Below, in pieces: positions 1,913 through 58,766 of a DNA stretch of 60,872 nucleotides. Source of the stretch: a virus (lineage: Duplodnaviria; Caudoviricetes); IMG/VR virus record IMGVR_UViG_3300044878_000242, positions 1 to 60,872 of that record; one strand, given 5' to 3'. How positions within the stretch are numbered: position 1 is the stretch's first letter; every line of letters starts with the position of its first letter. Made by a program: the position numbers and the translations under genes. The notes beneath the pieces are model-generated. The model did not search any database. It saw only the letters and a program-made list of their open reading frames with translations, and was not told the DNA's origin.

Positions 1913-1940
1913 AGGCGAAACAATTTCCCTTGTGTGACCT
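1913..1940 (-). repeat. 28-bp 11-6-11 motif, copy 1 (inverted orientation)
   Basis: AGGCGAAACAA-TTTCCC-TTGTGTGACCT. Confidence 0.85.
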
Positions 1941-2145
1941 ATTTTGGTTTTGGCCCTTTTTCGCCGCCTTCTAAAGGTGGCATATTGAGGCCGTGGGCAA
2001 TATCCACGTCGGGATCATCGCCCTCCTCCGTCCCCAAATCCTCATCCGTCAGCGCCCCATCAAACTTCGCCAACAACAACCACGCCCCCACCCCCACCAC
2101 CACAATCCCTACCATCGCCACCACAAAACCCAACTCAAAATTCAT
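1939..2145 (-). CDS. Small single-TM membrane protein
   Basis: GAGGAG RBS before MNFELG; hydrophobic N-terminus, acidic tail. Confidence 0.55.
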   Translation of the reverse strand: MNFELGFVVAMVGIVVVGVGAWLLLAKFDGALTDEDLGTEEGDDPDVDIAHGLNMPPLEGGEKGPKPK

Positions 2146-2176
2146 CGTCTCCTCCTCATTGTTCATTGATCCTTGT

Positions 2177-3421
2177 TCATTGTTCATTGCTCATCGCCAT
2201 CGCCATCTGCTCCCCCACCGCCTTCTTCTTCCGCCGCACCTTCCCCTTCGGCAGCAACGATTCCGCCGCCGCCTGTCCGCCCACATCCACCGGATCATCC
2301 AGCGTGGTCATGGTGTACACCTGCGTCACTGCCAGCGAACTATGCCCCAGCAGGTTGCGGATCTCCTCAAAATCTATCCCTTTTCCCTGCCCCTTCATCA
2401 ACTGCACCCGGAGCCGCGCCCCGGCGTGCCGTAATCCGTGGATATGCGCCTTGGTCGAATCTACCCCCGCCCGCCGGGCGTACTTTTTCAAAATCCGGTT
2501 GGCCAGGCTGTTAGAAATCGGCTTCGGCCCTGCTCCCTCTCCCTGGGGGTTGGGGGAGTCCTCGCCCTGAGCCGTGAGCCTGTCGAACGGTCGAAGGGGG
2601 CCACCAAACCGCAGCACCCGCTCCTCATCCAGGGGGATAAAAACGTAATCATCGGCTCCTATCGTCTCCCCTCGACCATCCGCACCTAAATAGGTTTTTA
2701 TCGCCGTGTAGCACTGTTTATTTAGCACAGCCTTCTTGATTTTGCCACCCTTATACCGGTACTGAAAGGCATAATCACCGCTGTCGGTCTCCACCAGGTC
2801 GCCCCAGCGCAGGTTCAAAACCTCGGAGCTTCGCCGGCACGTCACCAGGATCGTATAGAGCAGCGCAAAGTCACGCTTCCCCGTCAGGCACTCCGTATTG
2901 ATCGCCGCCAGCATCGTTTTTGCCTCATCCGTGCTCGGATACTTGGCTTTACCGTAAGGCGTCACCTTCAGCCGGTCCACCACATCAAACGGGTTGCGCT
3001 TATCCGCCGGCCATAAGTCGTATTTTTTCTGCACGTACCGGTAAAAATCCCCCAGCGCCGCCAGCTTCAGGTTAAACGTGCTCTGAGCCAGCGGCTCCCG
3101 TCGCAGCACCTGCCCGCTCTTCCGGTCCACCACCGGCTTACCCTCAAACATCAAATGCGCCGCCCATCGCTCCGCCATCTCCGGCAGCACTTCCCATGGC
3201 CGCACCTGGGCCCAGCGGAAGAACTGCTTCCAGGCCGTCTCATAATTCATCGCCGTGCTGCCCGTATCGTTCCGCCGGCGCTTCGCCTCCAGCCAGTGGT
3301 GGTACGCATCCAGCCAGGCCACCCACAAGCCGGTATCCTCATCCCCCAAAACCATCCCGTCCAGGATAGAGGTGCTAAATTCAACCGCCGGAATAATCTC
3401 AACCCGCATATCGTTAGCCAT
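2177..3421 (-). CDS. Tyrosine recombinase/integrase (XerC/D-like)
   Basis: Catalytic residues: R in CRRSSEV, K in YKGGK, HGLRH, LGHSS and Y in TQVY; N-terminal core-binding domain. Confidence 0.92.
   Translation of the reverse strand: MANDMRVEIIPAVEFSTSILDGMVLGDEDTGLWVAWLDAYHHWLEAKRRRNDTGSTAMNYETAWKQFFRWAQVRPWEVLPEMAERWAAHLMFEGKPVVDRKSGQVLRREPLAQSTFNLKLAALGDFYRYVQKKYDLWPADKRNPFDVVDRLKVTPYGKAKYPSTDEAKTMLAAINTECLTGKRDFALLYTILVTCRRSSEVLNLRWGDLVETDSGDYAFQYRYKGGKIKKAVLNKQCYTAIKTYLGADGRGETIGADDYVFIPLDEERVLRFGGPLRPFDRLTAQGEDSPNPQGEGAGPKPISNSLANRILKKYARRAGVDSTKAHIHGLRHAGARLRVQLMKGQGKGIDFEEIRNLLGHSSLAVTQVYTMTTLDDPVDVGGQAAAESLLPKGKVRRKKKAVGEQMAMAMSNEQ
2530..2600. repeat. REP-like palindromic elements inserted in frame in the recombinase
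   Basis: CCCTCTCCCTGGGGGTTGGGGGA plus CCCTGAGCCGTGAGCCTGTCGAACGGTCGAAGGG; near-identical copy at 4592-4629. Confidence 0.7.
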
Positions 3422-3469
3422 AATTGCCCCTTTTAATGTTGATAAACTCTTCCGTACCGGCGGCCTTGC

Positions 3470-3506
3470 CCCCCTCTCCTAGTAGGAGAGGGGCTGGGGG
3501 TGAGGT
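3470..3506. repeat. REP-like palindrome (CCCTCTCC...GGAGAGGG family)
   Basis: CCCCTCTCCTAGTAGGAGAGGGGCTGGGGGTGAGG; relatives at about 8207-8240 and 33383-33413. Confidence 0.65.
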
Positions 3507-3533
3507 CCCCAGCACGAAACAACCTACCAACTT

Positions 3534-3701
3534 TTACAAATCGTTCCGCCGCGCCAATTCTGCCAGCGCCAAAACCAACACCGTCAGCGCCCGCTCCTTC
3601 TCATCCGTCTCCGCCAAAACCTGCATCTCCAAAAAGCGCACAAACCCCTCCGAAATCTCCTTTTCCCAATCAACAACCACCGGCTCAATCCCCTTACTCA
3701 T
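3534..3701 (-). CDS. Hypothetical protein
   Basis: Short ORF from MSKGIE in the operon. Confidence 0.45.
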   Translation of the reverse strand: MSKGIEPVVVDWEKEISEGFVRFLEMQVLAETDEKERALTVLVLALAELARRNDL

Positions 3702-3769
3702 TGTTAATTGTTCATTGATCCTTGATCCTTGTTCACCTGCACTTGGCGAAAGACAAGTGTTGTTCATTT

Positions 3770-4749: not shown

Positions 4750-5037
4750 TTATATAGCCTGTCGCTCCGAGACATATATTTGGTTTTTTCGCCACGTCCA
4801 ATAATCCGCATCATTTCCCCAGGCCAGTTCCCCCAGGTACGGCAGCCGCCGCTTCCCATCCACCGCCTCGCCGATCCGCACCGCCTGCACCTGCTCCGGC
4901 CCCAACAGCGTCGAAATCCGCTCCGCCCAATACAGCCCTTCCCCCGCCGGACACTCCACCCCCACCGGCTTTCCATCCATTGGTATCACTGTTAATCTGG
5001 TCATCTGGTTGCCTCCATCATCATTGCTGGTTATCAA
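4750..5037 (-). CDS. Hypothetical protein
   Basis: ORF downstream of the Cro-like gene; likely start MTRLTV after GGAGG. Confidence 0.5.
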   Translation of the reverse strand: MITSNDDGGNQMTRLTVIPMDGKPVGVECPAGEGLYWAERISTLLGPEQVQAVRIGEAVDGKRRLPYLGELAWGNDADYWTWRKNQIYVSERQAI

Positions 5038-5110
5038 TTACCAATTACTAACTACTAACTACTAACTACTAATTACTAATTACTAATTACTAACTACTAA
5101 CTACTAATTA
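5035..5110. repeat. Heptamer tandem repeat (ACTACTA/ACTAATT)
   Basis: About 10 consecutive 7-nt units. Confidence 0.9.
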
Positions 5111-5448
5111 CCAACCTCATCCCCCGGCCCGGTCCCAAGGTGAACCAACTTCCGCTCTTTTGGGGAAGGTGCTGATGCTAACGTCTTCGCTTTTATCATG
5201 TCATTGGGAATAAAACCGGGGAGTTGATCCACCCGTAGCCGGGCCATCATCTGATCTTGGGGTTCATCGACTTCATCGCCGTTAGGCATAGCCGCCAGGG
5301 GGAGTTGGGTCATTCTGCGCACACGTTCTGTTTCAATCAATTTGCGCACAATGTAGGATACGGAACGATCATCTTGCTTCGCCCAACGTTCAAGCAGTTC
5401 CTTCGTATCCGTATCCGTACTAAATGTCATTATGATAGGCTCTCCCAT
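5104..5448 (-). CDS. Ribbon-helix-helix DNA-binding protein (Cro-position regulator)
   Basis: IMTFSTD...LLERWAKQDDRSVSYIVRKLIE matches the RHH/CopG pattern; divergent from the repressor. Confidence 0.7.
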   Translation of the reverse strand: MGEPIIMTFSTDTDTKELLERWAKQDDRSVSYIVRKLIETERVRRMTQLPLAAMPNGDEVDEPQDQMMARLRVDQLPGFIPNDMIKAKTLASAPSPKERKLVHLGTGPGDEVGN

Positions 5449-5493
5449 CTCAACTGTTTCCTTTCGCTAAGAAAAACGTTCCCGTTGGAAAGA

Positions 5494-5522
5494 ATAATAT
5501 CACACTTATGAAATCTTGTCAA
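5494..5522 (-). promoter_or_regulatory. Early lytic promoter, with candidate operators TTCC-N4-GGAA nearby at 5479-5490 and 5538-5549
   Basis: Minus strand TTGACA-17nt-TATTAT with an extended TG. Confidence 0.65.
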
Positions 5523-5555
5523 TAGTTAATATTTTAATTCCCAAAGGAATTTAAT

Positions 5556-6203
5556 ATGCAGTTACAATATAGTCAGAAGAATCGCGTGAAACCATTAAAG
5601 TATTGGATAGAAGAAAAATTACAGGAGCGCCACTGGAAACCAGCGGACTTAGCTAGAAATGCGGGGATAAAAGATGCGACGCTTAGTCGTATTTTAAACG
5701 GAGATCGCAATGCCGGCGCAGAGGTTTGCAAACGGATTGCTGGGGCGCTGGATGAACCAGCAGAAAAAGTCTTTCGTTTGGCCGGGCTGCTTCCTGCTAC
5801 CCCAGAGCCGCCGCCAAATCAAGAAAAACTTATCTTGCGCCAAATCCAACAGCTTATCCAGCATGCTAACCTGGTCCAAATCAAAGAAACCAACAGCGAA
5901 TATCATCCTGGAGCACCTGCCACTGGCGAGACCCACCCTCCGGTAATCGCGCCGGACGATGAGGATATAATGAATATCCTCAAACAGCTCGATCAATTCC
6001 ACTTGCGTCAGGTGTATGATTTTGCCCGGTGGCAGCTCAGCCAGCAGAACCATCCACTTAACTCCAGCGGAACACCAGAGCCGACAACAGCAGAGATAAT
6101 TGATTTGATGCTGCTTGTAGACGAATCCAGCCCGAGTCAGCGGGAAGCGATGATCAATTATCTATTAAATTTACCAGATCAGGGAAATAAGCCGGGGATA
6201 TGA
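5556..6203 (+). CDS. XRE-family HTH repressor (CI-like)
   Basis: WKPADLARNAGIKDATLSRILNGDRN HTH; divergent from the Cro-like gene. Confidence 0.85.
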   Translation: MQLQYSQKNRVKPLKYWIEEKLQERHWKPADLARNAGIKDATLSRILNGDRNAGAEVCKRIAGALDEPAEKVFRLAGLLPATPEPPPNQEKLILRQIQQLIQHANLVQIKETNSEYHPGAPATGETHPPVIAPDDEDIMNILKQLDQFHLRQVYDFARWQLSQQNHPLNSSGTPEPTTAEIIDLMLLVDESSPSQREAMINYLLNLPDQGNKPGI

Positions 6204-6445
6204 TGCGGTTTTTTAACAACAGCGTAAGCGCGGCCATTTGCAGGCCGGCATCTTTCGCCAGGATAAAAATGGCGAAAAACGTAAATTCAGGGTCGATAGC
6301 CAATTTCTTTACCAGATCGGGAGATAGATATGCTCTCAATGGCGGATTCCTTCTTATTCTGATTACAGGCCCCAAGACTCCCGCAAAAAGTATATCACAA
6401 GAAGCAGCTCTAACTATCTAGCTTAATGGTACTAGGAGACCCCTA

Positions 6446-7171
6446 ATGTCGACACCAAAAAAACTGCGTTCGTTCCTGTTCACTCTCCTCCTGATCCTGG
6501 CCGGCTGTTCAGCGCAAACCGTTGGCCTCCTCCCCACCAACACCCCCCGGCCCGGCCCCACCAGTACCTTTACGCCTGCTCCCACCAACACTCCTACCAT
6601 TACCCCAACCCCAACCCCACCCCCGGCCACCCCCACTCCTCCCCCTGCACCTACCGCTACACCTGTAATTATGGATGGCGCCGGCGATAGCGTGGCGGAT
6701 ATTACGATCAGCGAACCCGTCTTGCTTCGCATCGCCGGCAACACTGAGAGCCGAAACTTCGCCATAATTGCCCATGGGGCAAATCATCAGGATTTATTGG
6801 TTAATACCCTGGTGCCTTATACCGGCATTCGCCCCCTCAATTTTCAGGAAACATCAACCCGCCTGGAAATCAAAGCAGCGGGCAACTGGCATATCGAGAT
6901 ATGGCCTTTGGTTTCGGCCCATCGAATATCCGTTCCCGGCGAATTCAAAGGATCGGGTGACGATGTTTTATTTATTGATGGTGCGCCCAACACGGCCACC
7001 ATCAGCGGGAATCAAGCAGAGCGAAATTTTGCCGTCATTGGCTACGGCAAAACATCCGACCTGTTGGTAAATGCACTTGATCCCTACCAGGGCACCGTAA
7101 TAGTCAACCCGGAAACGCTTGTGCTGGAGGTGCGAGCCGTGGGCGGGTGGACAATAAAACTAAACCCGTAG
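6446..7171 (+). CDS. Lipoprotein with a Pro/Thr linker and two repeated beta domains (possible superinfection exclusion)
   Basis: Signal peptide with LAGC lipobox, PTxTPT linker, internal duplication (GN..SRNFAII...DLLVN twice). Confidence 0.75.
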   Translation: MSTPKKLRSFLFTLLLILAGCSAQTVGLLPTNTPRPGPTSTFTPAPTNTPTITPTPTPPPATPTPPPAPTATPVIMDGAGDSVADITISEPVLLRIAGNTESRNFAIIAHGANHQDLLVNTLVPYTGIRPLNFQETSTRLEIKAAGNWHIEIWPLVSAHRISVPGEFKGSGDDVLFIDGAPNTATISGNQAERNFAVIGYGKTSDLLVNALDPYQGTVIVNPETLVLEVRAVGGWTIKLNP

Positions 7172-7198
7172 CAGCCGGGCTTATCCCTGCCCGCATCC

Positions 7199-7226
7199 AG
7201 GTCAAACAACACCGCTTGTCTGACCT
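7199..7226. repeat. 28-bp 11-6-11 motif, copy 2 (most symmetric)
   Basis: AGGTCAAACAA-CACCGC-TTGTCTGACCT. Confidence 0.85.
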
Positions 7227-7343
7227 GAATAGCTATGCTAATATAACGCCAAATAAAAAAGCCCGGCAATGTGTTGCAAGCACATCGCCGGGCTATCCAC
7301 CTGCTGTTGCCCCAGCAAGCGGTTGAATTGATAATACCAATTC

Positions 7344-7382
7344 AAGCGGCTTTTCGCAACAGCGGAAGCCGCTTTTTGTTTT
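7344..7382 (+). terminator. Intrinsic terminator
   Basis: AAGCGGCTTTTCGC-aaca-GCGGAAGCCGCTT followed by a T-run. Confidence 0.6.
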
Positions 7383-7400
7383 GTTTCTGCCAAAATAGCC

Positions 7401-7451
7401 ATTTTTCCAACCACGAAAAATAAAAATTTTATTTTTCGTGGTTGGAAAAAT
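7401..7451. repeat. Perfect 51-bp palindrome (25-bp arms, 1-nt centre)
   Basis: ATTTTTCCAACCACGAAAAATAAAA-A-TTTTATTTTTCGTGGTTGGAAAAAT. Confidence 0.95.
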
Positions 7452-7631
7452 CAAGCCCCACTCCCCCTACTATCTACCCCTACTCCCTACTCCCCCCCCC
7501 GGAAACGGTAAAATTTACCAACTCGTAGGGGGGGGTAAATAGGGCAGTAGGGCCTAGTAGGGGCATAGTAGGGGGTAGTAGGGGCACAGTAGGGGGTAGT
7601 AGGGGCAGTAGGGGCACCCAGGGAGACGCAT

Positions 7632-9218: not shown

Positions 9219-9295
9219 CCTTGGAGCGTCTTGTTAGCTTCCAAGCCTCTCCCGAGGCATCTACAGGACGCTCCGCGATTGCAATTTGGCTCAAA

Positions 9296-9332
9296 TAAAA
9301 AGACCGGCCCACCTGGGCCGGTCTTGATTTTT
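9296..9332. terminator. Bidirectional terminator
   Basis: AAGACCGGCCC-acct-GGGCCGGTCTT between convergent genes. Confidence 0.7.
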
Positions 9333-9341
9333 ATTAAACAA

Positions 9342-9971: not shown

Positions 9972-10054
9972 AAGATTGCTGCGTCCTTTCTTCTGGTTAG
10001 AGCCGCCCAATTGTCTCACCAATTGAGCGGCTTGTTTTATTGTGTAATACCTAA

Positions 10055-10461: not shown

Positions 10462-10488
10462 AGGTCACACAAACAACCTTGTCCCCCC
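10462..10488 (+). repeat. 28-bp motif, copy 3 (right arm 1 nt short)
   Basis: AGGTCACACAA-ACAACC-TTGTCCCCCT. Confidence 0.8.
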
Positions 10489-10527
10489 TACTCCCTACTT
10501 CCTACTCCCTACTCCCTACTCCCTACT

Positions 10528-23917: not shown

Positions 23918-23945
23918 AGGTCACACAAACAACATTGTCCAACCT
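23918..23945 (+). repeat. 28-bp motif, copy 4
   Basis: AGGTCACACAA-ACAACA-TTGTCCAACCT. Confidence 0.85.
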
Positions 23946-33342: not shown

Positions 33343-33370
33343 AGGTCACACAAGGAAACTTGTCCCGCCT
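33343..33370 (+). repeat. 28-bp motif, copy 5
   Basis: AGGTCACACAA-GGAAAC-TTGTCCCGCCT. Confidence 0.85.
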
Positions 33371-37042: not shown

Positions 37043-37070
37043 AGGTTACACAAAGGGAATTGTTCCGCCT
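37043..37070 (+). repeat. 28-bp motif, copy 6
   Basis: AGGTTACACAA-AGGGAA-TTGTTCCGCCT, next to the portal stop codon. Confidence 0.85.
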
Positions 37071-41873: not shown

Positions 41874-41901
41874 AGGTGTAACAACCCTGCTTGTATGACC
41901 T
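41874..41901. repeat. 28-bp motif, copy 7
   Basis: AGGTGTAACAA-CCCTGC-TTGTATGACCT. Confidence 0.75.
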
Positions 41902-47536: not shown

Positions 47537-47564
47537 AGGTCACACAAGCAACGTTGTTCCGCCT
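47537..47564 (+). repeat. 28-bp motif, copy 8
   Basis: AGGTCACACAA-GCAACG-TTGTTCCGCCT, overlapping the E1 stop codon. Confidence 0.85.
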
Positions 47565-50843: not shown

Positions 50844-51229
50844 AGTTTGATCACCTTCCCGCTTGCATCACTGACCCGCTCCAACTCCTCCAGCGCCGTC
50901 TCAATGCGCCCGCACTCCCTCAGTAATTTTTCCGGGTCGGGCAGTTCTGGCCCCCCCAGAAACTCATTCAGGATAACCAGCGCCTCGATCTGCGCCGGCG
51001 GCGTCTCCAGGATCACCGCCACCACCGGATTTAACCCCTTCGTGCCCGTTTTTTTAGCGAATATCACCTTCCGTGGCTCGCCTTCCTTTTCCGGCGGAAT
51101 AACCGTATAGGTCGCTGTCACCAACGATTTATCAAATTGAGCATAGTGCACCCGGATATCCTCGATCTCATAGGCGTCCGCCTCGTCCGTAAATATCTGC
51201 TTGCCGTTGTGTTCGTAAACCGTGCTCAT
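50792..51229 (-). CDS. Prokaryotic ubiquitin-like protein (PRTRC protein C-like) with C-terminal extension
   Basis: MSTVYEHNG...IEDIRVHYA...L.TAT...VIFAKKTGTKG, then about 80 more residues. Confidence 0.75.
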   Translation of the reverse strand: MSTVYEHNGKQIFTDEADAYEIEDIRVHYAQFDKSLVTATYTVIPPEKEGEPRKVIFAKKTGTKGLNPVVAVILETPPAQIEALVILNEFLGGPELPDPEKLLRECGRIETALEELERVSDASGKVIKLCLESKAIAATAPPAGF

Positions 51230-52053
51230 GCTACCTCCCCAAAAATTCCAACGTGCGTTAGTAACGTTTTTCCAACCTCCGCCATCAACGACTCGGCGTG
51301 AACCGCCAAATTGGCTAGTGGGTCTGCCTTTCCCACCTGGGTCAACGTCACCAAACACAACCCCGTTGATTTGAGCGTCACGTGCAAATGATAATCCGGT
51401 ATGGCCTGGGGCTTCGGCGCGGGCGGAGGTGGAGGTGGCGGAGCTGGGGCTGCGCTTTCCATCTCTTGAGTTGCCGGCTCTTCCAACCCCCGCAGCCCGT
51501 CATACACAGGCGTGGACGATCGTGTCACCGGCGACGGTGGCGCCGGCTTTTCTTCAGTCTCATCCAGCCATTCGCTTTCAGCCTCATCAGCGGGCGCGGT
51601 CGGGAGACCCTGTTGCTTTGGCGTAATTTCTGCCTCCGCAGTCCGGTGGGCCTCAACTACCGCCTTCGCCGTAGTGTGGCTAATCGGCTCCCCGGCCTCG
51701 GCCCGCATGATAATTTCCTGTTTTGCGCTTTCCGGCGTAGATGGCGCCGATAATAAATACAGCGCACTCGTCGCAATATCAATTTGTGCAAAATTTGCAC
51801 GGCCCCGAAACTCCTTGAACACGCCGATAAAATTGTAGGCTGTCCGCCGGCTCCAATCGAACTCGGCCTGTAGCCAGGCGTCGAATTTGCCGTTGCCCAG
51901 CTTGACCTGAACCTCCAGCAGCTTCTCGCCCACCCGCATAATATTTTCAGCGGTCGAGCTCATCAGGTCCTTAATCTCAACCGCCCGCTGCCGCACTACA
52001 ATCCGCGTCTCTGTGTCCAGCGTTTCATAATCAAACAAAACTAATTGATCCAT
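51226..52053 (-). CDS. DUF3102-like DNA-binding protein
   Basis: IMRVGEKLLEVQ...GKFDAWL..EFDWSRRTAYNFI, SALYLLSAPSTP. Confidence 0.8.
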   Translation of the reverse strand: MDQLVLFDYETLDTETRIVVRQRAVEIKDLMSSTAENIMRVGEKLLEVQVKLGNGKFDAWLQAEFDWSRRTAYNFIGVFKEFRGRANFAQIDIATSALYLLSAPSTPESAKQEIIMRAEAGEPISHTTAKAVVEAHRTAEAEITPKQQGLPTAPADEAESEWLDETEEKPAPPSPVTRSSTPVYDGLRGLEEPATQEMESAAPAPPPPPPPAPKPQAIPDYHLHVTLKSTGLCLVTLTQVGKADPLANLAVHAESLMAEVGKTLLTHVGIFGEVA

Positions 52054-52079
52054 AATCGTCTTCCTTCCTTTCCTTAATT

Positions 52080-52810: not shown

Positions 52811-52822
52811 AATCCTATATCC

Positions 52823-53059
52823 TTACAGGTCACACAAACGGGATTGTTCATCCTCCAGGAGCAATAATCCCAATTTGAAAAAAATCTCCGCCGCCGTCTG
52901 TTCCCCTATACCCTTCACCCCATCGAGCGCCACCTCCGCAATCCCCTGGATTCCCTCATCCCGTCTGTACACCTCCAGCGCCGTCTCCCGCCCCAACTTG
53001 TCTACTGTCCCCTCATCATCCAACATAATCAATTTCCAAAACCTCGCCACATCATTCAT
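52823..53059 (-). CDS. Small protein with HhH-like motif
   Basis: LDGVKGIGEQTAAEI. Confidence 0.55.
   Translation of the reverse strand: MNDVARFWKLIMLDDEGTVDKLGRETALEVYRRDEGIQGIAEVALDGVKGIGEQTAAEIFFKLGLLLLEDEQSRLCDL
52827..52854 (+). repeat. 28-bp motif, copy 9
   Basis: AGGTCACACAA-ACGGGA-TTGTTCATCCT. Confidence 0.85.
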
Positions 53060-53097
53060 TGTTCATTGATCATTGTTCATTGTTCATTGTTCATTGA

Positions 53098-53445
53098 TCA
53101 CGCCATCGGACTATCATCATTCAACGCGCTTTGCCCCTGCCCCTCGACCACCTGAAACCGATCATACGGCTCCACCCAATACCCTGGCTGCTGTTGCGGC
53201 TGGCCTCCGTAAAGCGGTAGCGCCGGCATCCTGATATGATTATTGATCCGGGGCGGCTGCCCCCCGCCAAATACCGCCGCCGTCCATTGCCGGTTCAAAA
53301 ATAATAGCGCCAGGGCCATCACCACCCCCCCCAAAATAAACATTGCCAGCGCCAAGAAAATAATCCAGGCTGTTTCATTGACTGCAAAAAGGTAGACCAA
53401 CCCTGCGCCTATCGCCAGGCCCAATCCCAAACCAACAGCTTTCAT
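53098..53445 (-). CDS. Two-TM membrane protein
   Basis: Hydrophobic N-terminal half; coupled to the FtsK-like gene. Confidence 0.6.
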   Translation of the reverse strand: MKAVGLGLGLAIGAGLVYLFAVNETAWIIFLALAMFILGGVVMALALLFLNRQWTAAVFGGGQPPRINNHIRMPALPLYGGQPQQQPGYWVEPYDRFQVVEGQGQSALNDDSPMA

Positions 53446-54743
53446 ATTGCCACGCCCCCTTCTCGTCTAACCCGGATCCAGTATTGTATCCGGCTTCTCA
53501 CCTCTATTGCGTAATCCCGCGCAAGCTGGGACTGCCCCATGCTGCCCTTAAATTGTCGCTGAATCCCCGTGGCGCTATCTCGGACCACCAACGCATAGGC
53601 CAGTCGATCCGGGTCTACCTGCCACCTGCCCGGCTCAATCACCCTATCCCCAATCGGCTCGCCAAGTCCCGGTGTTGAGATTGTTTCTACCCTCGGAAGC
53701 TGCTCATAGTCCGCTTCTGCCGGCAGCGCCACCCTGAATCGGATCACCGGCCCGCCGTTGGTGGCCAGCGCGTCGCCTTTGCCGGTCCCATCCGGGCTGC
53801 CCAGGCTGCCGGTGTGTTGGCCCTTCACCCGCAGCGCCATATAAGCCTGGTCGTCCGGCAGTTGCAGCGCGATCCGGGCCAGGAAGTTGGCCTGGGCCAA
53901 ACTCCCCTTGTCTCCAAACGTGCTCGGATTCGCCGCCTGGCTGGCCACAACCAGGTTGAATCCCAACCCGCCTGACATCTGGCTGAGTTGGGTAATCATC
54001 GGGCCACTTTCCCTCATTACCTCGGTCAATTGGGCGACCTCATCTAAAATAATCGCCCATCTCACCCGCTGGCGCTGCGCATCGGCCCGCCGCTCCTCCA
54101 TCTCTCGCAGGGCATAGCGTAGCAACCCCACTGAAGACTCGTAATCATTCGCAATCGGCGCGGCCAAATGCGCCAGATTTTCAAACGGCCTAAAAGCCGG
54201 ATCATTCTTTGGGTTGATAATCAAAAACTTTAGCTCTTCCGGCTTGTACGCTCGCGCCAGGCTCAACACCACCACCGCCTCTAAGACGGTTTTGCCGGTG
54301 CGCGTCGAGCCAAAAATGGCCTTGTGCGGATTATTCTCCAAATCGAGCCGGGCCACTGGCCCCAGGGCCCGTTGGCCCACCGTAATGCTCTCTCGATGCT
54401 TCGGCAGATTAGCCAGCCGTACCTCCCGCCATTGGGCCGAGGGCAAGGTAAATTCCACCCGGATCAAGTTCAAATCCCGATACACCCGCGCAAAATGGCT
54501 TTGTGACCGCATAGCGAATCGCTCACCCAGCCCGCTCACAGTATCCCAATCCAAATCATCAATCATCATGGAAACCGTCACGCACTGCGGTCCGGCCACC
54601 GGGCGCGAAGTGAATCTAAATGGAATCCCGTTGGGTAGTCTCACGCTTCGCCCCATCGTCCTGAAACCCTTCCGCTTTGCCTCGCTGTTCACCAACACCT
54701 GCGCCACCGCCGCCAAATAGAGTCGTTCGTCAAAATTTGCCAT
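53442..54743 (-). CDS. FtsK/SpoIIIE-family ATPase
   Basis: PHKAIFGSTRTGKT, IINPK, IILDEVAQL, LVVASQ. Confidence 0.85.
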   Translation of the reverse strand: MANFDERLYLAAVAQVLVNSEAKRKGFRTMGRSVRLPNGIPFRFTSRPVAGPQCVTVSMMIDDLDWDTVSGLGERFAMRSQSHFARVYRDLNLIRVEFTLPSAQWREVRLANLPKHRESITVGQRALGPVARLDLENNPHKAIFGSTRTGKTVLEAVVVLSLARAYKPEELKFLIINPKNDPAFRPFENLAHLAAPIANDYESSVGLLRYALREMEERRADAQRQRVRWAIILDEVAQLTEVMRESGPMITQLSQMSGGLGFNLVVASQAANPSTFGDKGSLAQANFLARIALQLPDDQAYMALRVKGQHTGSLGSPDGTGKGDALATNGGPVIRFRVALPAEADYEQLPRVETISTPGLGEPIGDRVIEPGRWQVDPDRLAYALVVRDSATGIQRQFKGSMGQSQLARDYAIEVRSRIQYWIRVRREGGVAI

Positions 54744-54974
54744 AATCCAAATCCTTTTCTACAATTTCACCTACCGGGTCAGGGAAACCAAATCGCCCTG
54801 CCCCCGGCCCCATCGAGTCTTTACCTCGATGGGATTTTTTTACCCTGCTAACCCGCTCCATTTTGCCCCGGTCAGGTTGGATCATCGCCCTTTCGGGCCC
54901 AACAACGCGCCACGCGTCGCGTTCAACCATTTCCTTTGCTTACTGCCGGGGCAAAATGCAACCGGCTAGAAATC

Positions 54975-55002
54975 AGGTCACACAAGGGAGGTTGTCTCCC
55001 CT
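54975..55002 (+). repeat. 28-bp motif, copy 10
   Basis: AGGTCACACAA-GGGAGG-TTGTCTCCCCT. Confidence 0.85.
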
Positions 55003-55877
55003 CGCTTTACCAGACAATAATACCGGTATTGCACATTGGCCTGCTTCATCTTCATTTTTTTTGCAATCACCGCCCATCGTACCCATTGCCGCCGGCAATC
55101 CAGCAAAAAAGCATCAGCCTCTTTGCTCCAGCGTTCGTCGAACAACACGCTCCTGGCCGCCCCCTTACCTTTCAAGAACCTCACCTCCGGCCGCGTCGCC
55201 TCAGACCGCAATATCTTCCAGTTGGACCACTTTACCGCTTTGATCTCCCCCCGCCGGATCGCCCGGTTTACATCAAAATGTTCTACCCCGTGATACGCCG
55301 CCACCTCGCCAATCGTCCACCACTCATCCCCCCAGCGCGCTTTTTGTCGCTCAATCAGCCGGCGCAGATGTGGGTCCAAAATCCGCGCGGTGTCCCTCAT
55401 AGAATTAAAAAAATATAGCCAATTCTCCGGGTTCACCGCCCAGCGCAGCAGCGTCACATACCGGATCATTCTAATCCGCCGCCCGCCTGGCAGCACCCGG
55501 CTCGGTAGCCGGCCCGTATCCGTCAAAAAACATATGGCATGTACATCTATCCCCAGCAGCGCCGCCGCCTGGTGCGCGGTCACCCAACCCGGTCGTTTGC
55601 TTTTAACGATAATCCCTCGCCGCACCTGGACGATTTTTATGGCGTTCTCTGTCCGCCCTAGCCGGGTTGCCAATTCGTTGGTATTCAGCACAGGTAGATT
55701 CTCATCCAGCCACCGCAGATCACTCAGGCTCCACCGAAACGACTTTGCCGGATTAACCCGGCCCGTCTCGATCACGCCGGACACCTGCGCCCCAGGATGC
55801 CGGCTGCCCACAATAGCCGGATCAACCCCGGATTCAAGTTCCGCTTCAGCTATCAACGAATCAAGATCAAACATCAT
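54978..55877 (-). CDS. Multi-HTH DNA-binding protein
   Basis: ELATRLGRTENAI, VTAHQAAALLGI and WTIGEVAAYHGV HTH-like units. Confidence 0.65.
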   Translation of the reverse strand: MMFDLDSLIAEAELESGVDPAIVGSRHPGAQVSGVIETGRVNPAKSFRWSLSDLRWLDENLPVLNTNELATRLGRTENAIKIVQVRRGIIVKSKRPGWVTAHQAAALLGIDVHAICFLTDTGRLPSRVLPGGRRIRMIRYVTLLRWAVNPENWLYFFNSMRDTARILDPHLRRLIERQKARWGDEWWTIGEVAAYHGVEHFDVNRAIRRGEIKAVKWSNWKILRSEATRPEVRFLKGKGAARSVLFDERWSKEADAFLLDCRRQWVRWAVIAKKMKMKQANVQYRYYCLVKRGETTSLV

Positions 55878-56835
55878 CGCAGTTCACCCGCTTAATCAAG
55901 CTCTCTACAAATTCAATCAACCCCGGGCAACTCAAGCACCTCGCCGTCAACCCGTTGGCCGCGCACGGGCCACACAACTCCTCAGCCATCGCCCGTATTT
56001 CCTCAGCGCAGGCCGGGCAAAAACAGCGCACCGCGATTGTCTCCGGCGCCGGCAGTTGCACCCGCTTTACCTCTGCCTGCTGCACGGCCACCCTTGCCGC
56101 AGGCGGAGCCACTACTACCGCCTGGTCCAGGGTTTGTTTCACCTTGGCAACCGACCGTACAATAACCTCAATGCTCGCCCCCTTCTCCGCAAACCGCCGC
56201 GCTAATTGCAGCCTGGTCTCTTCCGGCAATTCGAGCAAAGCCTTGGTTACATGGCTATCCTTGCTGATTTGCCCACTTTCCATATACCCCATAATCTCCG
56301 GGTCTAATTTTAATATATCCATCCGGCTCTTGATATACCCCTGCGATTTTCCGCACAATTTAGAAACCCTATTAAGGCTCTTGTGGATTTTTAGAAGCCG
56401 CTCGTAAGCCCGCCCCTCCTCTACCAGAGTCAAATCCTCTCGCTGCAAATTCTCCACCACCGCCACAGATTCTCTGTCCATCTGCTCCGGCGCCACCCTC
56501 ACCCGTACCTCAACTCGTTTTAGAATCGGGTACGTTCCCAAAACCTCCCAGGCGTCATCCCGACACACCAGCTCAATCGCTTCATCCAGCGGAACCAGGT
56601 CCGTCGATAACGCAATCGCGCACATCGCCCTGGAGCGCCGTTCCCCGGCGAGCAGCCGGTAGTGCCCATTTTCCGCGTACACAATCGGCGGATTGAGCAG
56701 GCTGTGCTGCCGGATGCTGTCCACCAATTCACTCATGCTGCCTGCCTCAAACTTCTGCCGCACCTGCTGCGGCCCTGGCTTGATTTTGTCCAGCGTTGTT
56801 TTTCGCTCTTGCAACATCTCCAATTCGATCATCAC
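55867..56835 (-). CDS. parB: ParB-family protein with Cys-rich C-terminus
   Basis: ELVDSIRQHSLLNPPIV, LLAGERR, ENLQREDL..VEEG, HTH; CFCPAC..CGPC..CLSC. Confidence 0.85.
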   Translation of the reverse strand: MMIELEMLQERKTTLDKIKPGPQQVRQKFEAGSMSELVDSIRQHSLLNPPIVYAENGHYRLLAGERRSRAMCAIALSTDLVPLDEAIELVCRDDAWEVLGTYPILKRVEVRVRVAPEQMDRESVAVVENLQREDLTLVEEGRAYERLLKIHKSLNRVSKLCGKSQGYIKSRMDILKLDPEIMGYMESGQISKDSHVTKALLELPEETRLQLARRFAEKGASIEVIVRSVAKVKQTLDQAVVVAPPAARVAVQQAEVKRVQLPAPETIAVRCFCPACAEEIRAMAEELCGPCAANGLTARCLSCPGLIEFVESLIKRVNCDDV

Positions 56836-56885
56836 TCTACCCTCGCCCTATTTTCTACTAATTACTAATTACTAATTACTAACTA

Positions 56886-57113
56886 CTAACTACTGGTCAA
56901 CCGCCACTGCTTCACCCGGCGCCCCTTAAAATGCTTATCCTGCCGCCCGATATGAAACAGCCCGCACCATTTGCACCGGTACACCCGCCGCTGCTCCCTG
57001 AGCGCCCCCACCCGATACAACACCATCAACCCGTGAAACGCCTGCTCAAACGTCTCATACCGGCCCGATTTGTTAGTACACTCCCTGCGGCGCAGCCGGC
57101 GCTTACTGGACAT
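56886..57113 (-). CDS. Small zinc-finger protein
   Basis: C..K..Y...YRCKWCGLFHIG. Confidence 0.6.
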   Translation of the reverse strand: MSSKRRLRRRECTNKSGRYETFEQAFHGLMVLYRVGALREQRRVYRCKWCGLFHIGRQDKHFKGRRVKQWRLTSS

Positions 57114-57330
57114 TGTGTCCATTCCGGCTAACTGCCAACTCCCCCGCATCCAGCGCCCTCACTACGTCGCCCAACTCCACGATCAACCGGCCCCTAGCGT
57201 CCCGGCAGTGCAGCCGTCCGGCTCTCAGATTCTCGTCAACCCAGCGCACCGCCCCCAGCGCCGCCAAATACGCCTGGTTCCGCTCTTTTAGCGCCGCCGT
57301 GTCCATTAACTGATTAAAATTGCCGTCCAT
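57103..57330 (-). CDS. Hypothetical protein
   Basis: GGAGG RBS before MDGNF. Confidence 0.5.
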   Translation of the reverse strand: MDGNFNQLMDTAALKERNQAYLAALGAVRWVDENLRAGRLHCRDARGRLIVELGDVVRALDAGELAVSRNGHNVQ

Positions 57331-57352
57331 AAAACGCCTCCTGCCAACTCCG

Positions 57353-57829
57353 CTACGCAATTGCCCGATCAAGCTCCGGCAATTTTATCTCTGATTTTTC
57401 GCTAATAATAGCCGCCAACCTAAAATTCGCCGCGCATTTCAAGATGTGATCGGCCAGACGTTTCTCCTCATCGGTCAAGCTTTGCCGGGGCGTTTTTATC
57501 ACAACCTCACTTCCTCGCACAATTTTATCCAGCCCCCCATTAAGGTAAGTCACACCAAGGTTGATTCTGCCTGAATCGTTCAGGCATTGAAACGCCTCCC
57601 CCCTAAATACCGGTTTAAGGATTACATTGTGATTTTTCTCCAGTTTCTTGCGCCACACCTGGGTAATCGTTTTCCAACGCCTCTGGTCCCATTTAATCCC
57701 TATCACCTCCTCTATTTCCGCGTATTTGATCTGCTGGTTCGGAGCCGGGGTACCAAATTTATCAAGGAGCGCATTAACCTCCGGCTCGGTAGTTGCGCCC
57801 CCCTTTGGAAATACGTAATTTTTTGTCAT
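57353..57829 (-). CDS. Uncharacterised partner of the Cas7-like gene (possible winged-helix DNA-binding protein)
   Basis: ATGA overlap with 57826-58491; basic, IKYAEIEEVIG helix pattern. Confidence 0.65.
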   Translation of the reverse strand: MTKNYVFPKGGATTEPEVNALLDKFGTPAPNQQIKYAEIEEVIGIKWDQRRWKTITQVWRKKLEKNHNVILKPVFRGEAFQCLNDSGRINLGVTYLNGGLDKIVRGSEVVIKTPRQSLTDEEKRLADHILKCAANFRLAAIISEKSEIKLPELDRAIA

Positions 57830-58491
57830 TTCATCAACTCCTCAACTTGAACCGTAAATTTACCAAATGATCCCGGAGATTTTGGTGAGGACGGTCGCCA
57901 ATCGCCCAGCCCGCAGTAGGCTCCGGCAGTGGTGATAATAGTGGTTAAAACGTGCTTCGTTATCCGCTCATCAAAAACGGTCAGACTGCCCGCGAGCCGC
58001 CAATTATCGAAGCGCGGTCTAACTCTAACGTGTTTGGCCGCGCCGATTTTGGCCCGCTTCACAAACAACTCAAACCCCAGCGACTCCACGGTCTCCTTAT
58101 GCTGCTGAAAATCATCAACCCGGGTTAGAGGCTTTATCTTATCGTAAAGCACCTCAGCTCCATTGATTAAAATCGCCCAGGCCGATTGGTCTACCACGAT
58201 GCCCGATTGAGTCACCGCTTTAAATGTTTCCGTCCCCTTCCCCGTGCTGATTTTTTTGCCGCCTTCGCGCAGCATCGTCATTAAATTATCAGCCGGAACA
58301 ACGATCTTCCCACCCTCCACATACAGGCAGCCCATCCAGCGCCACGCCGGTGTTCTGTCGTCGCCGGGCACGCTGCTTTTGCTGTGAGTTGGATCTGTAG
58401 ACCACTTTTTCAGCATATCACCCCAATCCAAATTGTCCTGATGTAGCAACAATGGAGTCTCCCCAACCAAAATAACTTTATATCGTTTCAT
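57826..58491 (-). CDS. Solitary Cas7/RAMP-like protein (Vipr-like)
   Basis: RAMP hallmarks: beta1 YKVILVGETPLLLH, VVPADNLMTMLREGG, VRVRPRF, and C-terminal G-rich loop GLGDWRP...GSFGKFTV. Confidence 0.75.
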   Translation of the reverse strand: MKRYKVILVGETPLLLHQDNLDWGDMLKKWSTDPTHSKSSVPGDDRTPAWRWMGCLYVEGGKIVVPADNLMTMLREGGKKISTGKGTETFKAVTQSGIVVDQSAWAILINGAEVLYDKIKPLTRVDDFQQHKETVESLGFELFVKRAKIGAAKHVRVRPRFDNWRLAGSLTVFDERITKHVLTTIITTAGAYCGLGDWRPSSPKSPGSFGKFTVQVEELMK

Positions 58492-58529
58492 CGTTAGCCC
58501 CTTATAAATAAATTTGTTAGTAAAAGTTT

Positions 58530-58743
58530 GGCTTTACAGCCCCTCGATCCGTGCCATGCCGTGCCGCGCCCTGCCACGCCTCACCCCGCCACGCCGTGAT
58601 CCTTGCCCTGCCTAGCCAGGCCTCGCCCAGCCAAGCCGTGCCTCGCCCAGCCAAGCCATGCCCAGCCGTGATCCTCGCCTTGCCCTGCCTTGCCTTGCCG
58701 CGCCAAGCCGCGCCGCGCCGTGATCCCTGCCTAAAACCAGGCC
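58530..58743 (-). ncRNA. GGY-NN pentamer array: candidate guide RNAs in three tracts with GGATCAC separators and a 3' GNRA hairpin
   Basis: Tracts of 9 (58719-58675), 13 (58667-58603) and 9 (58595-58551) GGYNN units; GGATCAC three times; terminal GGATCG; GGCT-GTAA-AGCC hairpin. Confidence 0.8.
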
Positions 58744-58766
58744 ACACAAGAAAGCTTGTTCATCCT
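58739..58766 (+). repeat. 28-bp motif, copy 11 (at the 5' edge of the GGYNN array)
   Basis: AGGCCACACAA-GAAAGC-TTGTTCATCCT. Confidence 0.8.

Follow-up and report, generated by a model that had tools for sequence, protein, structure and literature searches.

Eleven copies of one quasi-palindromic element are dispersed over the window, the 60,872-nucleotide stretch of viral DNA analyzed here. The source is a circular, roughly 60.3-kb temperate phage-plasmid of uncultured, filamentous, Caldilineaceae-like Chloroflexi. Its ParM-like actin gene runs across the contig ends, and a ParB-like gene is also present. The sites border modules for partition, regulators, an FtsK-like gene, DUF3102 with a ubiquitin-like system, replication, terminase, portal, head, tail, and lysogeny.

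A discrete set of sites at gene junctions

The symmetric core AGG-N4-ACAA-N6-TTGT-N4-CCT occurs 11 times in the window, at the places listed in the first-pass annotation, and not once in dinucleotide-preserving shuffles (n = 100). The strong-arm consensus, allowing up to 3 mismatches, finds the identical 11 places and no others in the window. A weight matrix of 36 columns, built from 28 sites of four phages, returns exactly 11 sites at 33.9 to 44.8 bits and otherwise no match of 12 bits or more in the window, the top score among 20 shuffles being 15.8 bits. As 11 sites score 34 to 45 bits and the range from 12 to 33 bits is empty, they form a discrete, high-information set.

Site 1, 1913..1940, plus strand: 44.8 bits; strong arm (1930-1940) towards the 3' end of the Xer-like recombinase gene region; upstream of the minus-strand small-gene/ParM operon
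Site 2, 7199..7226, plus strand: 41.9 bits; nearly symmetric; 28 nt past the stop of the final gene in the cI-like operon; terminator-like hairpins next, serine recombinase gene ~405 nt downstream
Site 3, 10462..10489, minus strand: 37.5 bits; end of the long minus-strand tail operon, followed by a perfect, terminator-like inverted repeat
Site 4, 23918..23945, minus strand: 40.0 bits; tail module, 22 nt upstream of the start of ORF 23416-23895; adjoins the window-specific block 23987-27611
Site 5, 33343..33370, minus strand: 40.3 bits; upstream of the head-gene block; adjoins the window-specific ORF 33416-33664
Site 6, 37043..37070, minus strand: 36.4 bits; terminase/portal junction, 1 nt past the stop of the putative large terminase ORF 37072-38859
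Site 7, 41874..41901, plus strand: 38.9 bits; nearly symmetric; between ORFs 41909-42268 and 41320-41862, with an ATG 11 nt past the site
Site 8, 47537..47564, minus strand: 38.1 bits; overlaps the stop of the ThiF/E1-like gene; Mom-like gene 27 nt downstream
Site 9, 52827..52854, minus strand: 33.9 bits; within the final codons of ORF 52823-53059, at the head of the gene run ending in the DUF3102 gene
Site 10, 54975..55002, minus strand: 39.1 bits; overlaps the final codons of the multi-HTH ORF 54978-55877; ORF 54730-54930 and the FtsK-like gene follow, 44 nt downstream
Site 11, 58739..58766, minus strand: 37.0 bits; 2 nt past the stop of a conserved 83-aa gene, which comes after the ParM-like gene

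Whereas the core of the 28-bp, 11-6-11 quasi-palindrome first described holds, the real element is longer and more lopsided, a 36-bp quasi-palindrome with the full-site consensus AtwC-AGG-nnnn-ACAA-N6-TTGT-GTGA-CCT-GnwT and a single strong arm, TGC-TTGTGTGACCT-G. The halves are unequal, one being the consensus and the other retaining only the AGG and ACAA blocks, and the flanks at positions -3 to 0 and 29 to 32 (AtwC and GnwT) are mirror-symmetric. All eleven N6 spacers are distinct, as had been observed, with positions 15 to 17 tending towards TGC and with A scarce when the spacer is read from the weak to the strong arm (14 of 168 cells).

By strong-arm score, eight sites point in one direction (10462, 23918, 33343, 37043, 47537, 52827, 54975, and 58739), in agreement with the earlier count; the other three (1913, 7199, and 41874) point the opposite way, 7199 and 41874 being near-symmetric. 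The strong arm is aligned with local transcription at 9/11 window sites. Proximity to stop codons, previously reported for nearly all copies, extends to 11/11, each overlapping a stop or lying no more than 50 nt away, and the downstream start codon is usually 0 to 45 nt off, in the window and in relatives. Of the 11 sites, 9 include 14 or more non-coding bases, where a random 28-mer would do so with probability 0.07 in a genome with a 7% non-coding share, these junction statistics using our own ORF calls made without a gene finder. The cI/cro-like intergenic region (5449-5555) is free of copies, again as annotated. Site 3 does abut a tandem array (10486-10527), which has period 7 (CCCTACT) and not the period-5 GGYNN pattern proposed for it, and an element described as tRNA-like is not supported as a tRNA, ARAGORN finding 0 tRNAs in the window.

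Conservation in related phages and absence from the host

Judged by genome scans, the motif is specific to this phage lineage. At least six other viral contigs have it at junctions, as do 14 metagenome fragments, and 14/29 metagenome loci have protein homology to the phage group. Among the relatives, G001, G002, and G003 carry 5, 7, and 5 sites (0 for a reversed-pattern control), and G005, G006, and G007 carry 1, 2, and 5 to 7. A host-wide repeat, which the first-pass annotation had named as a refuting outcome, is rejected: among 301 genomes of the putative host's class, where the motif is at chance level, more than one copy occurs in only one genome, the phage carrier, and three have one copy each, with ~4 estimated by chance. 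The 5.7-Mb putative host MAG has no site outside phage DNA, and at up to 3 mismatches it yields two matches versus one to two in the control.

Orthologous junctions allow the sites to be followed through divergence. At the terminase/portal junction (site 6; orthologues in G001, G002, and G003) and upstream of the serine recombinase (site 2; kept in G001-3, L084, and L089), the invariant columns are retained in four to six phages while the flanks and variable columns differ, which indicates that the sites are under selection. Site 1 has orthologues after the recombinase gene in G001, G002, G003, L088, and L106, the site after the E1 gene is present also in G002, G003, and G006, and in G001-3 a site stands 16 to 17 nt ahead of the 143-aa gene preceding DUF3102. 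In G001-3 the sites are reversed at two junctions, one following the recombinase gene and the other preceding the DUF3102 operon. Both sites of G006 are likewise in reversed orientation, and they retain all 14 invariant bases. As it spans a cI-like gene, terminase, portal, tail genes, and serine recombinase, G006 looks nearly complete; it keeps DUF3102 and has no PF00589 match in a search that was positive in 14/14 control genomes. Since the motif is common to related phages and absent from the host genome, the sites are almost certainly a docking place for a phage protein.

Candidate binding proteins

The binders suggested at first sight do poorly. CI is a poor candidate, as the recognition helix of the cI-like protein is not conserved, and the cI-operator reading is rejected. 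The multi-HTH protein has no homologue in relatives, and for ParB no ParB_N domain is found in G002 or G003. The tyrosine recombinase remains a candidate, and that earlier list was incomplete, as it lacked a further protein. The two candidates are:

DUF3102 protein, 51226..52053, minus strand: 275 aa; Pfam PF11300; candidate binder A
Xer-like tyrosine recombinase, 2177..3421, minus strand: 414 aa; PF00589; candidate binder B

DUF3102 is shared by all five fairly complete site-bearing genomes (the window, G001-3, and G006), and it is the sole predicted DNA-binding protein with a conserved reading region common to them, its N-terminal 140 aa being nearly invariant. An all-alpha N domain with a helix-turn-helix-like stretch is followed by a disordered proline-rich linker and a small C domain (structure model pLDDT 80.7). 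Residues 36 to 148 weakly resemble the DNA-binding domains of ParB, KorB, Spo0J, SopB, and VirB, with Z scores of 4.6 to 6.0 that are under the tool's own caution level of 8, and hhalign of DUF3102 against the phage ParB-like proteins gives 0.4% probability. The protein is predicted to dimerize: the modeled homodimer scores 0.68, versus 0.00 for the best of 3 controls, with runs concurring in at least 34% of contacts, a partner pLDDT of at least 60, and a tool calibration of 20/30 for solved pairs and 1/23 for single chains. A DUF3102 helix-turn-helix dimer is the first candidate for the regulator. Counting against it, G008 has a homologue of 44% identity with a nearly identical WSxRTAYNFIGVYK stretch, yet it is site-less (0 sites at up to 2 mismatches in 39 kb), G194 has a homologue and sites not above control, the 24 kb around the homologue on a Gloeothece plasmid contain no ACAA-N6-TTGT, and in G006 no site precedes the DUF3102 gene.

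Competing explanations

The three functions put forward without ranking in the first-pass annotation (recombinase, stoperator-like, and partition or nucleoid sites) can now be ordered. A tentative preference goes to a global regulator for which the copies would serve as operators or roadblocks across the genome, the main rival being that the copies are core-type sites (11-bp arm, 6-bp overlap, 11-bp arm) of the phage Xer-like tyrosine recombinase, which we consider rather unlikely. On the recombinase reading, the copy adjacent to the gene would resolve plasmid-prophage multimers, like Cre at lox, while the other copies, each with a different overlap, would be inert towards each other, their only possible partner being the matching site of a sister copy or of a co-infecting relative; exchange with such a relative would then swap whole modules. 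The array is likened to the pdif sites of Acinetobacter plasmids. In accounts of dif and pdif, these are 28-bp sites with two 11-bp arms, one better conserved, a variable 6-bp center, and palindromic inner parts that are the most conserved (PMC6449649), an anatomy with which the phage site agrees. The Xer/dif geometry seen initially is apt in detail, the arms being unequal, the inner 4 bp invariant and palindromic, and the center variable. The very high information content and the distinctness of all spacers within each genome also fit. The recombinase itself has XerA, XerD, and XerC as its top NCBIfam and PDB matches and invariant, intact R..HxxR..H..Y catalytic residues, with 69 to 70% identity among four phages; however, its NCBIfam scores are all far under the Xer family cut-offs. 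A site follows the recombinase gene in 6/6 relatives holding it, with the strong arm always facing the gene and, in L088 and L106, just 8 to 10 nt past its stop codon. Among the 301 genomes, a close homologue is found only where the motif occurs, though on the same phage contig. The putative host has one exact match to a dif consensus (GAAGTTAATAA-TGGTTT-TTATGTGAAAT), whose right arm is identical to the phage strong arm at 8/11 positions, but this candidate differs from the motif at 7/18 specified positions, which makes action of host XerCD at the phage sites unlikely. Alternating site orientation is typical of dif modules, unlike the mostly direct orientation here. Multimer resolution needs one site, and the upkeep of 5 to 11 per genome is hard to explain if infrequent exchange is their sole use; the nearly complete G006 has two sites and lacks a PF00589 match. 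The proposed test, whether gene-content breakpoints coincide with the sites, gives no enrichment: 5/11 site junctions are borders between conserved and non-conserved genes, versus 23/70 junctions without a site (Fisher p = 0.31). Homology breaks among G001, G002, and G003 lie mostly away from sites, and those flush with them, which the recombinase reading would explain, include G002 33120/33134 (versus a 520-bp insertion in G003) and G002 43928.

Dispersed centromere-like or nucleoid-organizing sites, which a ParB-fold or ParR-like adaptor would bind to segregate the plasmid prophage or to compact it, are improbable. Phage N15 has dispersed partition sites, to which these might be likened, and the phage carries a ParB-like gene and a ParM-like gene followed by the conserved 83-aa gene; the ParM-like gene's operon has an upstream site in all four phages, G006, which lacks ParM, has just two sites, and the DUF3102 fold likeness noted above points the same way. 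However, G006 retains sites with no partition genes, ParB_N is not found in G002 or G003, type II partition sites are known as clustered iterons rather than single dispersed dyads, and strict placement at gene junctions near start codons is unnecessary for segregation. Somewhat less probable again are activator-dependent promoters, in which a dyad-bound phage activator would stand in for the -35 contact, with the A/T-rich stretch past the strong arm as a -10 box. Nine of the 11 window sites are directed at the next gene, positions 31 to 33 are A/T-rich, and a generic scan gives one sigma-70-like match over site 41874. This A/T-rich flank is mirrored on the weak-arm side, though, and so belongs to the palindrome, the symmetry fitting a dimer footprint rather than a one-sided -10 box, and several start codons lie only 0 to 6 nt past the site, leaving no room for a -10 box and start point. 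Sites 7199 and 10462 lead directly into terminator-like hairpins, G006 and two conserved junctions show the opposite orientation, and no sigma factor or RNA polymerase gene is recognized among the 82 ORFs scanned. Plain sigma-70 promoters are rejected, a scan of 41000-60872 giving 12 matches versus 14.6 in shuffles, none on the gene strand at sites and with no promoter signal at a fixed distance. Highly improbable is an element acting in RNA (hairpin, terminator, or protein-binding motif) or a functionless selfish repeat. The 28-mers do fold at a mean of -7.0 kcal/mol versus -3.5 in shuffles, and T-rich runs follow several sites, but the RNA hairpin is rejected, as arm pairing is sparse (positions 4 to 7 pair with 25 to 22 in just 8, 9, 8, and 2 of 28 sites) and these 28 sites show no compensatory changes. 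Both arms keep specific letters and not just any that could pair, sites face either way with respect to the genes, Rfam yields no match, and the invariant columns conserved at orthologous junctions speak against a functionless repeat.

A proposed role as operators or roadblocks

On the favored operator or roadblock reading, we infer protein binding, the identity of the binder, and an effect on transcription. All eleven copies would be bound as double-stranded DNA by one conserved phage-encoded protein, acting as a dimer or as two unlike subunits. One regulator would sit tightly between the stop codon of a module and the start codon of the next, where it may silence or insulate the long one-directional lytic transcription unit in the prophage state and block read-through leaving the lysogeny genes.

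Several observations count against operators or roadblocks. The sigma-70 scan gives no promoter signal at a constant spacing from the sites. At sites 7199 and 10462, with a stop codon on one side and terminator-like hairpins on the other, a roadblock seems superfluous, the sites of relatives do not preserve their orientation with respect to transcription, and ~34 to 45 bits is far above the information need of an operator. The dif-like anatomy and the recombinase-adjacent site are better explained by recombination.

As operators or roadblocks, the sites would resemble in mode of action the C1 operators of P1, the stoperators of L5, and the KorB sites of RK2. P1 is described as having 22 dispersed C1 operators (PMC8546580), and L5 as having more than 20 repressor sites, in promoters and short intergenic spaces (PMC9283540), while KorB is reported to silence genes from distal OB sites (PMC11790492).

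A discrete set of asymmetric dyads

Searching the window with AGG-N4-ACAA-N6-TTGT-N4-CCT returned the same eleven copies that the first-pass annotation had listed and no others, and 100 dinucleotide-preserving shuffles returned 0. The same eleven places were recovered with the consensus of the strong arm, the better conserved of the two 11-bp arms, at up to 3 mismatches. The half-site TTGTGTGACCT, allowing up to 1 mismatch, was found 14 times against 0.43 expected, of which 12 fall inside the eleven sites and the other two stand alone at 4179 and 14006, and the core ACAA-N6-TTGT occurs 14 times (0.71 expected), 11 of these being the sites. A weight matrix of 36 columns, built from 28 sites of four phages, scores the window sites at 33.9 to 44.8 bits, the best of 20 shuffles reaching 15.8. 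Because the matrix finds nothing else in the window at 12 bits or more, the site set is discrete, without a tail of weaker sites.

When each of the 28 sites is oriented by its better arm, the consensus reads a-t-w-C AGG k-s-n-A ACAA t-n-n-T-G-C TTGTGTGACCT G-n-W-T. AGG, CAA, TTG, and CCT are invariant, while the GTGA of one arm is kept in 21 to 26 of the 28 sites and its mirror positions vary freely. At positions -3..0 and 29..32 the flanks mirror one another, which implies a symmetric footprint of ~36 bp. Read on the weak-to-strong strand, the spacer has A in 14 of 168 cells, and its last three positions lean toward TGC. Orthologous sites usually differ in spacer; the spacer CACCGC, common to site 7199 and to G004:C8:5107 (G004 is a metagenome-assembled genome [MAG] of the putative host class) in unrelated contexts, could be shared by chance, with an estimated probability of ~0.1.

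Genome layout and site placement

The window is an entire IMG/VR virus record. Its first 547 bases (1-547) repeat the last 547 (60326-60872) at 93% identity. As judged from this repeat, the contig closes on itself at ~60.3 kb; it is either a closed circle or else a genome with terminal redundancy put together from a mixed population, and the completeness of 66% assigned by CheckV is probably too low. Nearly all open reading frames (ORFs) lie on the minus strand, from ~60.8 kb down to 10.5 kb.

Predicted features of the window
Across the contig join, minus strand: ParM-like actin gene (Pfam)
2177-3421, minus strand: tyrosine recombinase (Pfam)
5556-10413, plus strand: block with cI-like HTH gene, large serine recombinase, and small Cro/C1-type HTH gene
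Minus strand, Pfam matches: ParM-like, ParB-like, multi-HTH protein, FtsK/SpoIIIE-like ATPase, DUF3102 protein, prokaryotic E2/JAB/ThiF(E1) set
Minus strand, further Pfam matches: Mom-like gene, replication genes, Mu-F-like portal region, major capsid protein, tail tube, tape-measure protein

A set of 82 hand-picked ORFs leaves 7.2% of the window non-coding. All eleven sites overlap a stop codon or lie within 50 nt of one, and 9/11 include at least 14 non-coding bases, for which the chance of a random 28-mer is 0.07. The sites occupy short intergenic spaces across the genome, as stoperators do, and split it into functional modules. The start codon of the next gene usually lies 0 to 45 nt beyond the site; at sites 7199 and 10462, terminator-like hairpins come next instead. 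The gap between the cI- and cro-like genes (5449-5555) holds no site or half-site. Orientation follows transcription at 9/11 window sites. Among viral-contig relatives with sites, G001, G002, and G003 each have three sites with and two against transcription, G002 having two ties besides, and G006 has 0/2 with it; orientation is reversed at two conserved junctions in G001-G003 and at both G006 sites. A search of sequencing runs for the phage returned 5 DNA runs and no RNA run.

Several other elements were seen in the course of this work. About ten short period-7 tandem arrays of 4 to 11 copies also lie at gene junctions, most of them junctions without the 28-bp motif (2156-2194, 5036-5111, 7545-7616, 10486-10527, 12699-12726, 30389-30428, 35845-35881, 43435-43482, 53055-53100, and 56856-56894). 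Many share a TACT core (CCCTACT, AATTACT, CCTACTA), and the arrays are reminiscent of heptamer repeats in filamentous cyanobacteria. At 7420-7470, between a site and the serine recombinase gene, a strongly conserved inverted repeat (CCACGAAAAATAA-N8-TTATTTTTCGTGG) precedes a C-run/G-run hairpin. G001, G002, G003, and the scan loci L084 and L089 share this repeat, which probably serves the serine recombinase gene as an operator or promoter element. Directly after that gene, 9223-9301 matches DNA beside tRNA-Leu(taa) in the provirus G001 (65978-66054) and in a Caldilineaceae MAG (L063 9743-9828), and it is likely the attachment region. The MAG island at this tRNA-Leu place spans 7.5 kb and carries, together with a motif site, genes for a fused methylase-clamp protein, RadC, a ParB-like protein, and a TET-associated glycosyltransferase. 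The FtsK/SpoIIIE-like ATPase at 53442-54743 is kept at 55-59% identity in all four phage-plasmids; that it might move DNA between filamentous host cells, as in actinomycete conjugation, is pure speculation. Beside site 23918, a window-specific block includes the gene (24726-27611) of a 961-aa protein with laminin-G/concanavalin-like domains and long 63/126/189-bp coding repeats.

Distribution among relatives and in the host

Scanning viral contigs with the 15 specified bases gave 41 loci, 10 of which carry the full 28-bp pattern. Over whole records, we counted 5 sites in G001, 7 in G002, 5 in G003, 1 in G005, and 2 in G006, with 0 in the reversed-pattern controls; a further relative, G007, has 5 sites (7 by weight matrix), again with 0 in the reversed-pattern control. 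The genes that G001-G003 share with the window show 65-75% identity, and many of their other genes differ. G007, at 64% G+C, has its sites 0 to 15 nt before its large structural genes and shares no protein with the window at an E of 1e-4 or better. A metagenome scan yielded 29 loci, 14 with protein homology to this phage group; 12 of the 15 without such homology are at 31-44% G+C. At the terminase/portal junction (4 phages) and upstream of the serine recombinase (6 phages), the invariant columns are kept while flanks and free columns differ, so that the sites, rather than being copies of recent origin, are preserved by selection.

The species-genome scan gave seven loci, two of which belong to G004, a Caldilineaceae MAG. 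In this MAG, contig C36 is practically the same as G002, whereas contig C8 begins beside tRNA-Leu inside another prophage, where one site precedes a ParB-like gene, and the right end of G001 matches this G004 host region at 90-95%. Because of these links, Caldilineaceae are likely the host group. The part of G004 that is not phage DNA has no site beyond control level at up to 3 mismatches. Among 301 genomes of its class, three others have one site each, with ~4 estimated by chance in roughly 1.1 Gb. Only G004 (1/301) has more than one, so the motif is not the host-wide repeat that the first-pass annotation had named as the outcome that would undo its reading.

Wider searches used the window itself and the two proteins discussed below. 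Neither megablast with 24 kb of the window nor tblastn with the N domain of the DUF3102 protein matched an isolated phage. Among viral contigs, G008 was the sole new locus from the DUF3102 alignment, and a repeat search there found no convincing family; the recombinase alignment brought up no further locus. The 143-aa gene after one G006 site and the 143-aa gene after a site in the window's group have no detectable relation (hhalign, 2%).

Candidate binding proteins

Most of the proteins considered as binders were rejected. The cI-like proteins cannot read an invariant motif, as their reading helices differ between phages that share it, and no site lies in the cI/cro-like gap. The CI protein suggested by the first-pass annotation is dropped on that account. 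Also dropped are its multi-HTH protein, which has no homologue in the relatives, and its ParB-like protein: ParB_N was not found in G002 or G003, and of the 2/4 phages matched only the window exceeds the cut-off. For the serine recombinase, identity in G006 is just 35%, and its own likely attachment region shows no motif. For host XerCD, the reference was a candidate host dif, the one sequence in G004 that fits a dif consensus exactly; this candidate differs from the motif at 7/18 specified positions, and no host site was found at up to 3 mismatches beyond control. A host transcription factor is unlikely, the host genomes being without sites. Two candidates remain, the DUF3102 protein (51226-52053, minus strand, 275 aa) and the Xer-like tyrosine recombinase (2177-3421, minus strand, 414 aa).

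The first 140 residues of the DUF3102 protein are nearly invariant in the window, G001-G003, and G006, and it is the sole protein common to all five besides the cI-like HTH protein, the serine recombinase, and the E2/JAB/E1 set. In its model (pLDDT 80.7), the N domain is all-alpha, a disordered linker follows, and the C domain is small. Foldseek found no PDB structure matching it at an E of 0.001 or better. In a wide structural search, residues 36-148 aligned repeatedly with the DNA-binding domains of ParB, KorB, Spo0J, SopB, P1 ParB, and VirB (seven ParB-superfamily domains; rmsd 2.7-10.2 Å, 88-110 residues aligned) at Z of 4.6 to 6.0, which is below the safe level of the tool, and hhalign against phage ParB-like proteins gave 0.4%. 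Modeling supports a predicted homodimer, scoring 0.68 versus 0.00 for the best of 3 controls, with contacts made by the C domain as well as by the long N-terminal helix. In calibration, the tool called 20/30 solved pairs and 1/23 single chains; contact agreement between runs was at least 34%, with a partner pLDDT of at least 60.

The DUF3102 candidate is weakened because homologues at 44-50% identity occur without the motif in G008, G194, and a Gloeothece plasmid, and because no site precedes the DUF3102 gene of G006. The domain is ~50% identical even in cyanobacteria. A plasmid tblastn with it found 3 megaplasmids; in one of these, the 24 kb examined contained no motif. The term DUF3102 did not appear in the title or abstract of the literature matches. 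In the window, G001-G003, and G006, the DUF3102 gene is always followed by genes for a ubiquitin-like protein, E2, JAB, and E1(ThiF) (47563-52053 in the window). This layout recalls the NCBIfam "ParB-related, ThiF-related cassette," and the ParB-like protein of the window weakly matches the ParB model of that family.

The tyrosine recombinase has XerA, XerD, and XerC as best matches, far below the curated cut-offs (79 versus 220 bits; 70 versus 330 bits), and its catalytic residues are invariant. A site follows the recombinase gene in 6/6 gene-bearing relatives, with the strong arm facing the gene, and in two relatives it lies 8 to 10 nt beyond the stop codon. Of the 11 positions of the strong arm, 8 agree with the right arm of the candidate host dif in G004. 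In G006, a search for a tyrosine recombinase (PF00589) gave no match, the same search having succeeded in 14/14 controls. G006 looks nearly complete, its 37.8 kb running from the cI-like gene to the serine recombinase with terminase, portal, and tail genes, although CheckV rates it 55% complete and its ends do not overlap. With 2 sites and no PF00589, it breaks the expectation that the recombinase is present wherever conserved sites are.

Role of the sites

An RNA structure and a promoter were both considered. The RNA fold of the element is weak: positions 4-7 pair with 25-22 in 8, 9, 8, and 2 of the 28 sites, without compensatory changes, so that no stable stem of the kind expected of an intrinsic terminator or RNA hairpin is kept, and no Rfam family matched. 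A sigma-70 scan of 41-60.9 kb gave 12 hits versus 14.6 in shuffles, none on the gene strand at a site, and -35/-10 hexamers were not found at fixed positions in or beside the motif. As neither an RNA-hairpin nor a sigma-70 signal was seen, the element is best read as a site on duplex DNA recognized by a candidate protein pair. We regard an RNA role, or no function at all, as scarcely credible and rank it last; activator-dependent promoters stand fourth, with a slim chance. A role in partition or organization, for which the dispersed centromeres of phage N15 offer a parallel, comes third and seems improbable. Some weight is left for a reading not considered here.

The two readings ranked highest are a genome-wide operator or roadblock and a pdif-like recombinase array. 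We tentatively place the operator or roadblock first because the sites lie between stops and starts, every copy is maintained, the footprint is of a dimer type, and P1 operators, L5 stoperators, and KorB provide precedents. The recombinase array, second, is possible if somewhat unlikely. It draws on the dif-like anatomy and on the site beside the recombinase gene, and the gene content of G006 stands against it. The first-pass annotation had offered module shuffling as one option, with synteny breaks expected at the sites; conserved/non-conserved borders fall at 5/11 site junctions versus 23/70 site-free junctions, which lends the idea no support (P = 0.31) in a small sample. Among homology breaks of G001, G002, and G003, few are flush with sites and most lie elsewhere. 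In a fuller version, which we consider quite unlikely, the lineage would carry its own Xer-like recombinase and, wherever two modules meet, a dif-shaped site whose 6-bp overlap is unique to it, and relatives could swap whole modules on co-infection through site-specific recombination between same-numbered sites. If true, the "linker" sequences long postulated in modular phage evolution would be real and enzyme-driven, a phage counterpart of pdif modules.

Comparison with known systems

The dif modules are known for alternating orientation. Column counts over the 28 sites give the dif/pdif anatomy: 28 bp, 11-bp arms, a variable 6-bp centre, one stronger arm, and palindromic inner arm bases that are the best conserved. 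The Xer/dif geometry of 11-6-11 noted in the first-pass annotation therefore holds up against the pdif sites of Acinetobacter plasmids, which PMC6449649 describes as 28 bp and 11-6-11, with one arm more conserved, palindromic inner bases that vary least, a variable centre, and many copies at module borders. The present sites differ in that the outermost AGG/CCT is also invariant and the symmetry runs to 36 bp. The only nearby Xer-like enzyme is phage-encoded, orientation is mostly direct, and no module was seen to move; moreover, the sites do not match the host candidate dif, and G006 keeps them without a tyrosine recombinase.

A stoperator is asymmetric, 13 bp long, and occupied by the immunity repressor as a monomer, the same site serving as operator of the early lytic promoter. 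Stoperators of the L5 gp71 type in cluster A mycobacteriophages are described in PMC9283540 as many repressor-site copies in short intergenic spaces, with a bias to one orientation relative to transcription. The present sites are instead 28- to 36-bp dyads with invariant blocks in both halves, not short asymmetric sites for a monomeric repressor; none lies at the cI/cro-like switch (5449-5555), the cI-like reading helix varies among motif-sharing phages, and orientation is not kept across relatives. The ACAA-N6-TTGT core is, as the first-pass annotation observed, that of phage 434 operators, yet the present motif needs 14 further conserved positions, and the HTH_3 proteins of these phages share no reading helix. 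P1 operators are 17-bp asymmetric sites. As a plasmid prophage, P1 has 22 dispersed C1 operators across its genome, according to PMC8546580. No C1 homologue was recognized in the window.

The OB core of RK2 is a short perfect palindrome, whereas the present sites span 28 to 36 bp with one weak half. PMC11790492 describes the KorB OB operators as dispersed palindromes, some far from promoters, read by a dimer in which a flexible linker joins a ParB-type HTH to the C-terminal dimer domain. The DUF3102 model has a KorB-like layout, but the fold likeness is weak (8qa8, Z 5.8; 1r71, Z 5.2), homology is unsupported by hhalign (0.4%), and the protein is without the N-terminal CTP-binding domain of the ParB family. 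No known family fits in full.

To our knowledge, dispersed control sites for a single protein are known from few mobile elements (P1, L5-like phages, and RK2), all of cultured Proteobacteria or Actinobacteria. Should the Xer-like recombinase be the binder, this would be, as far as we know, the first phage with a recombination-site array at module borders; should it be DUF3102, a first function would be gained for an uncharacterized domain that is widespread and often found on plasmids of cyanobacteria. The sites form a clean, testable set in uncultured phage-plasmids of filamentous Chloroflexi, with a dif-like anatomy that fits none of P1, L5-like phages, and RK2 exactly.
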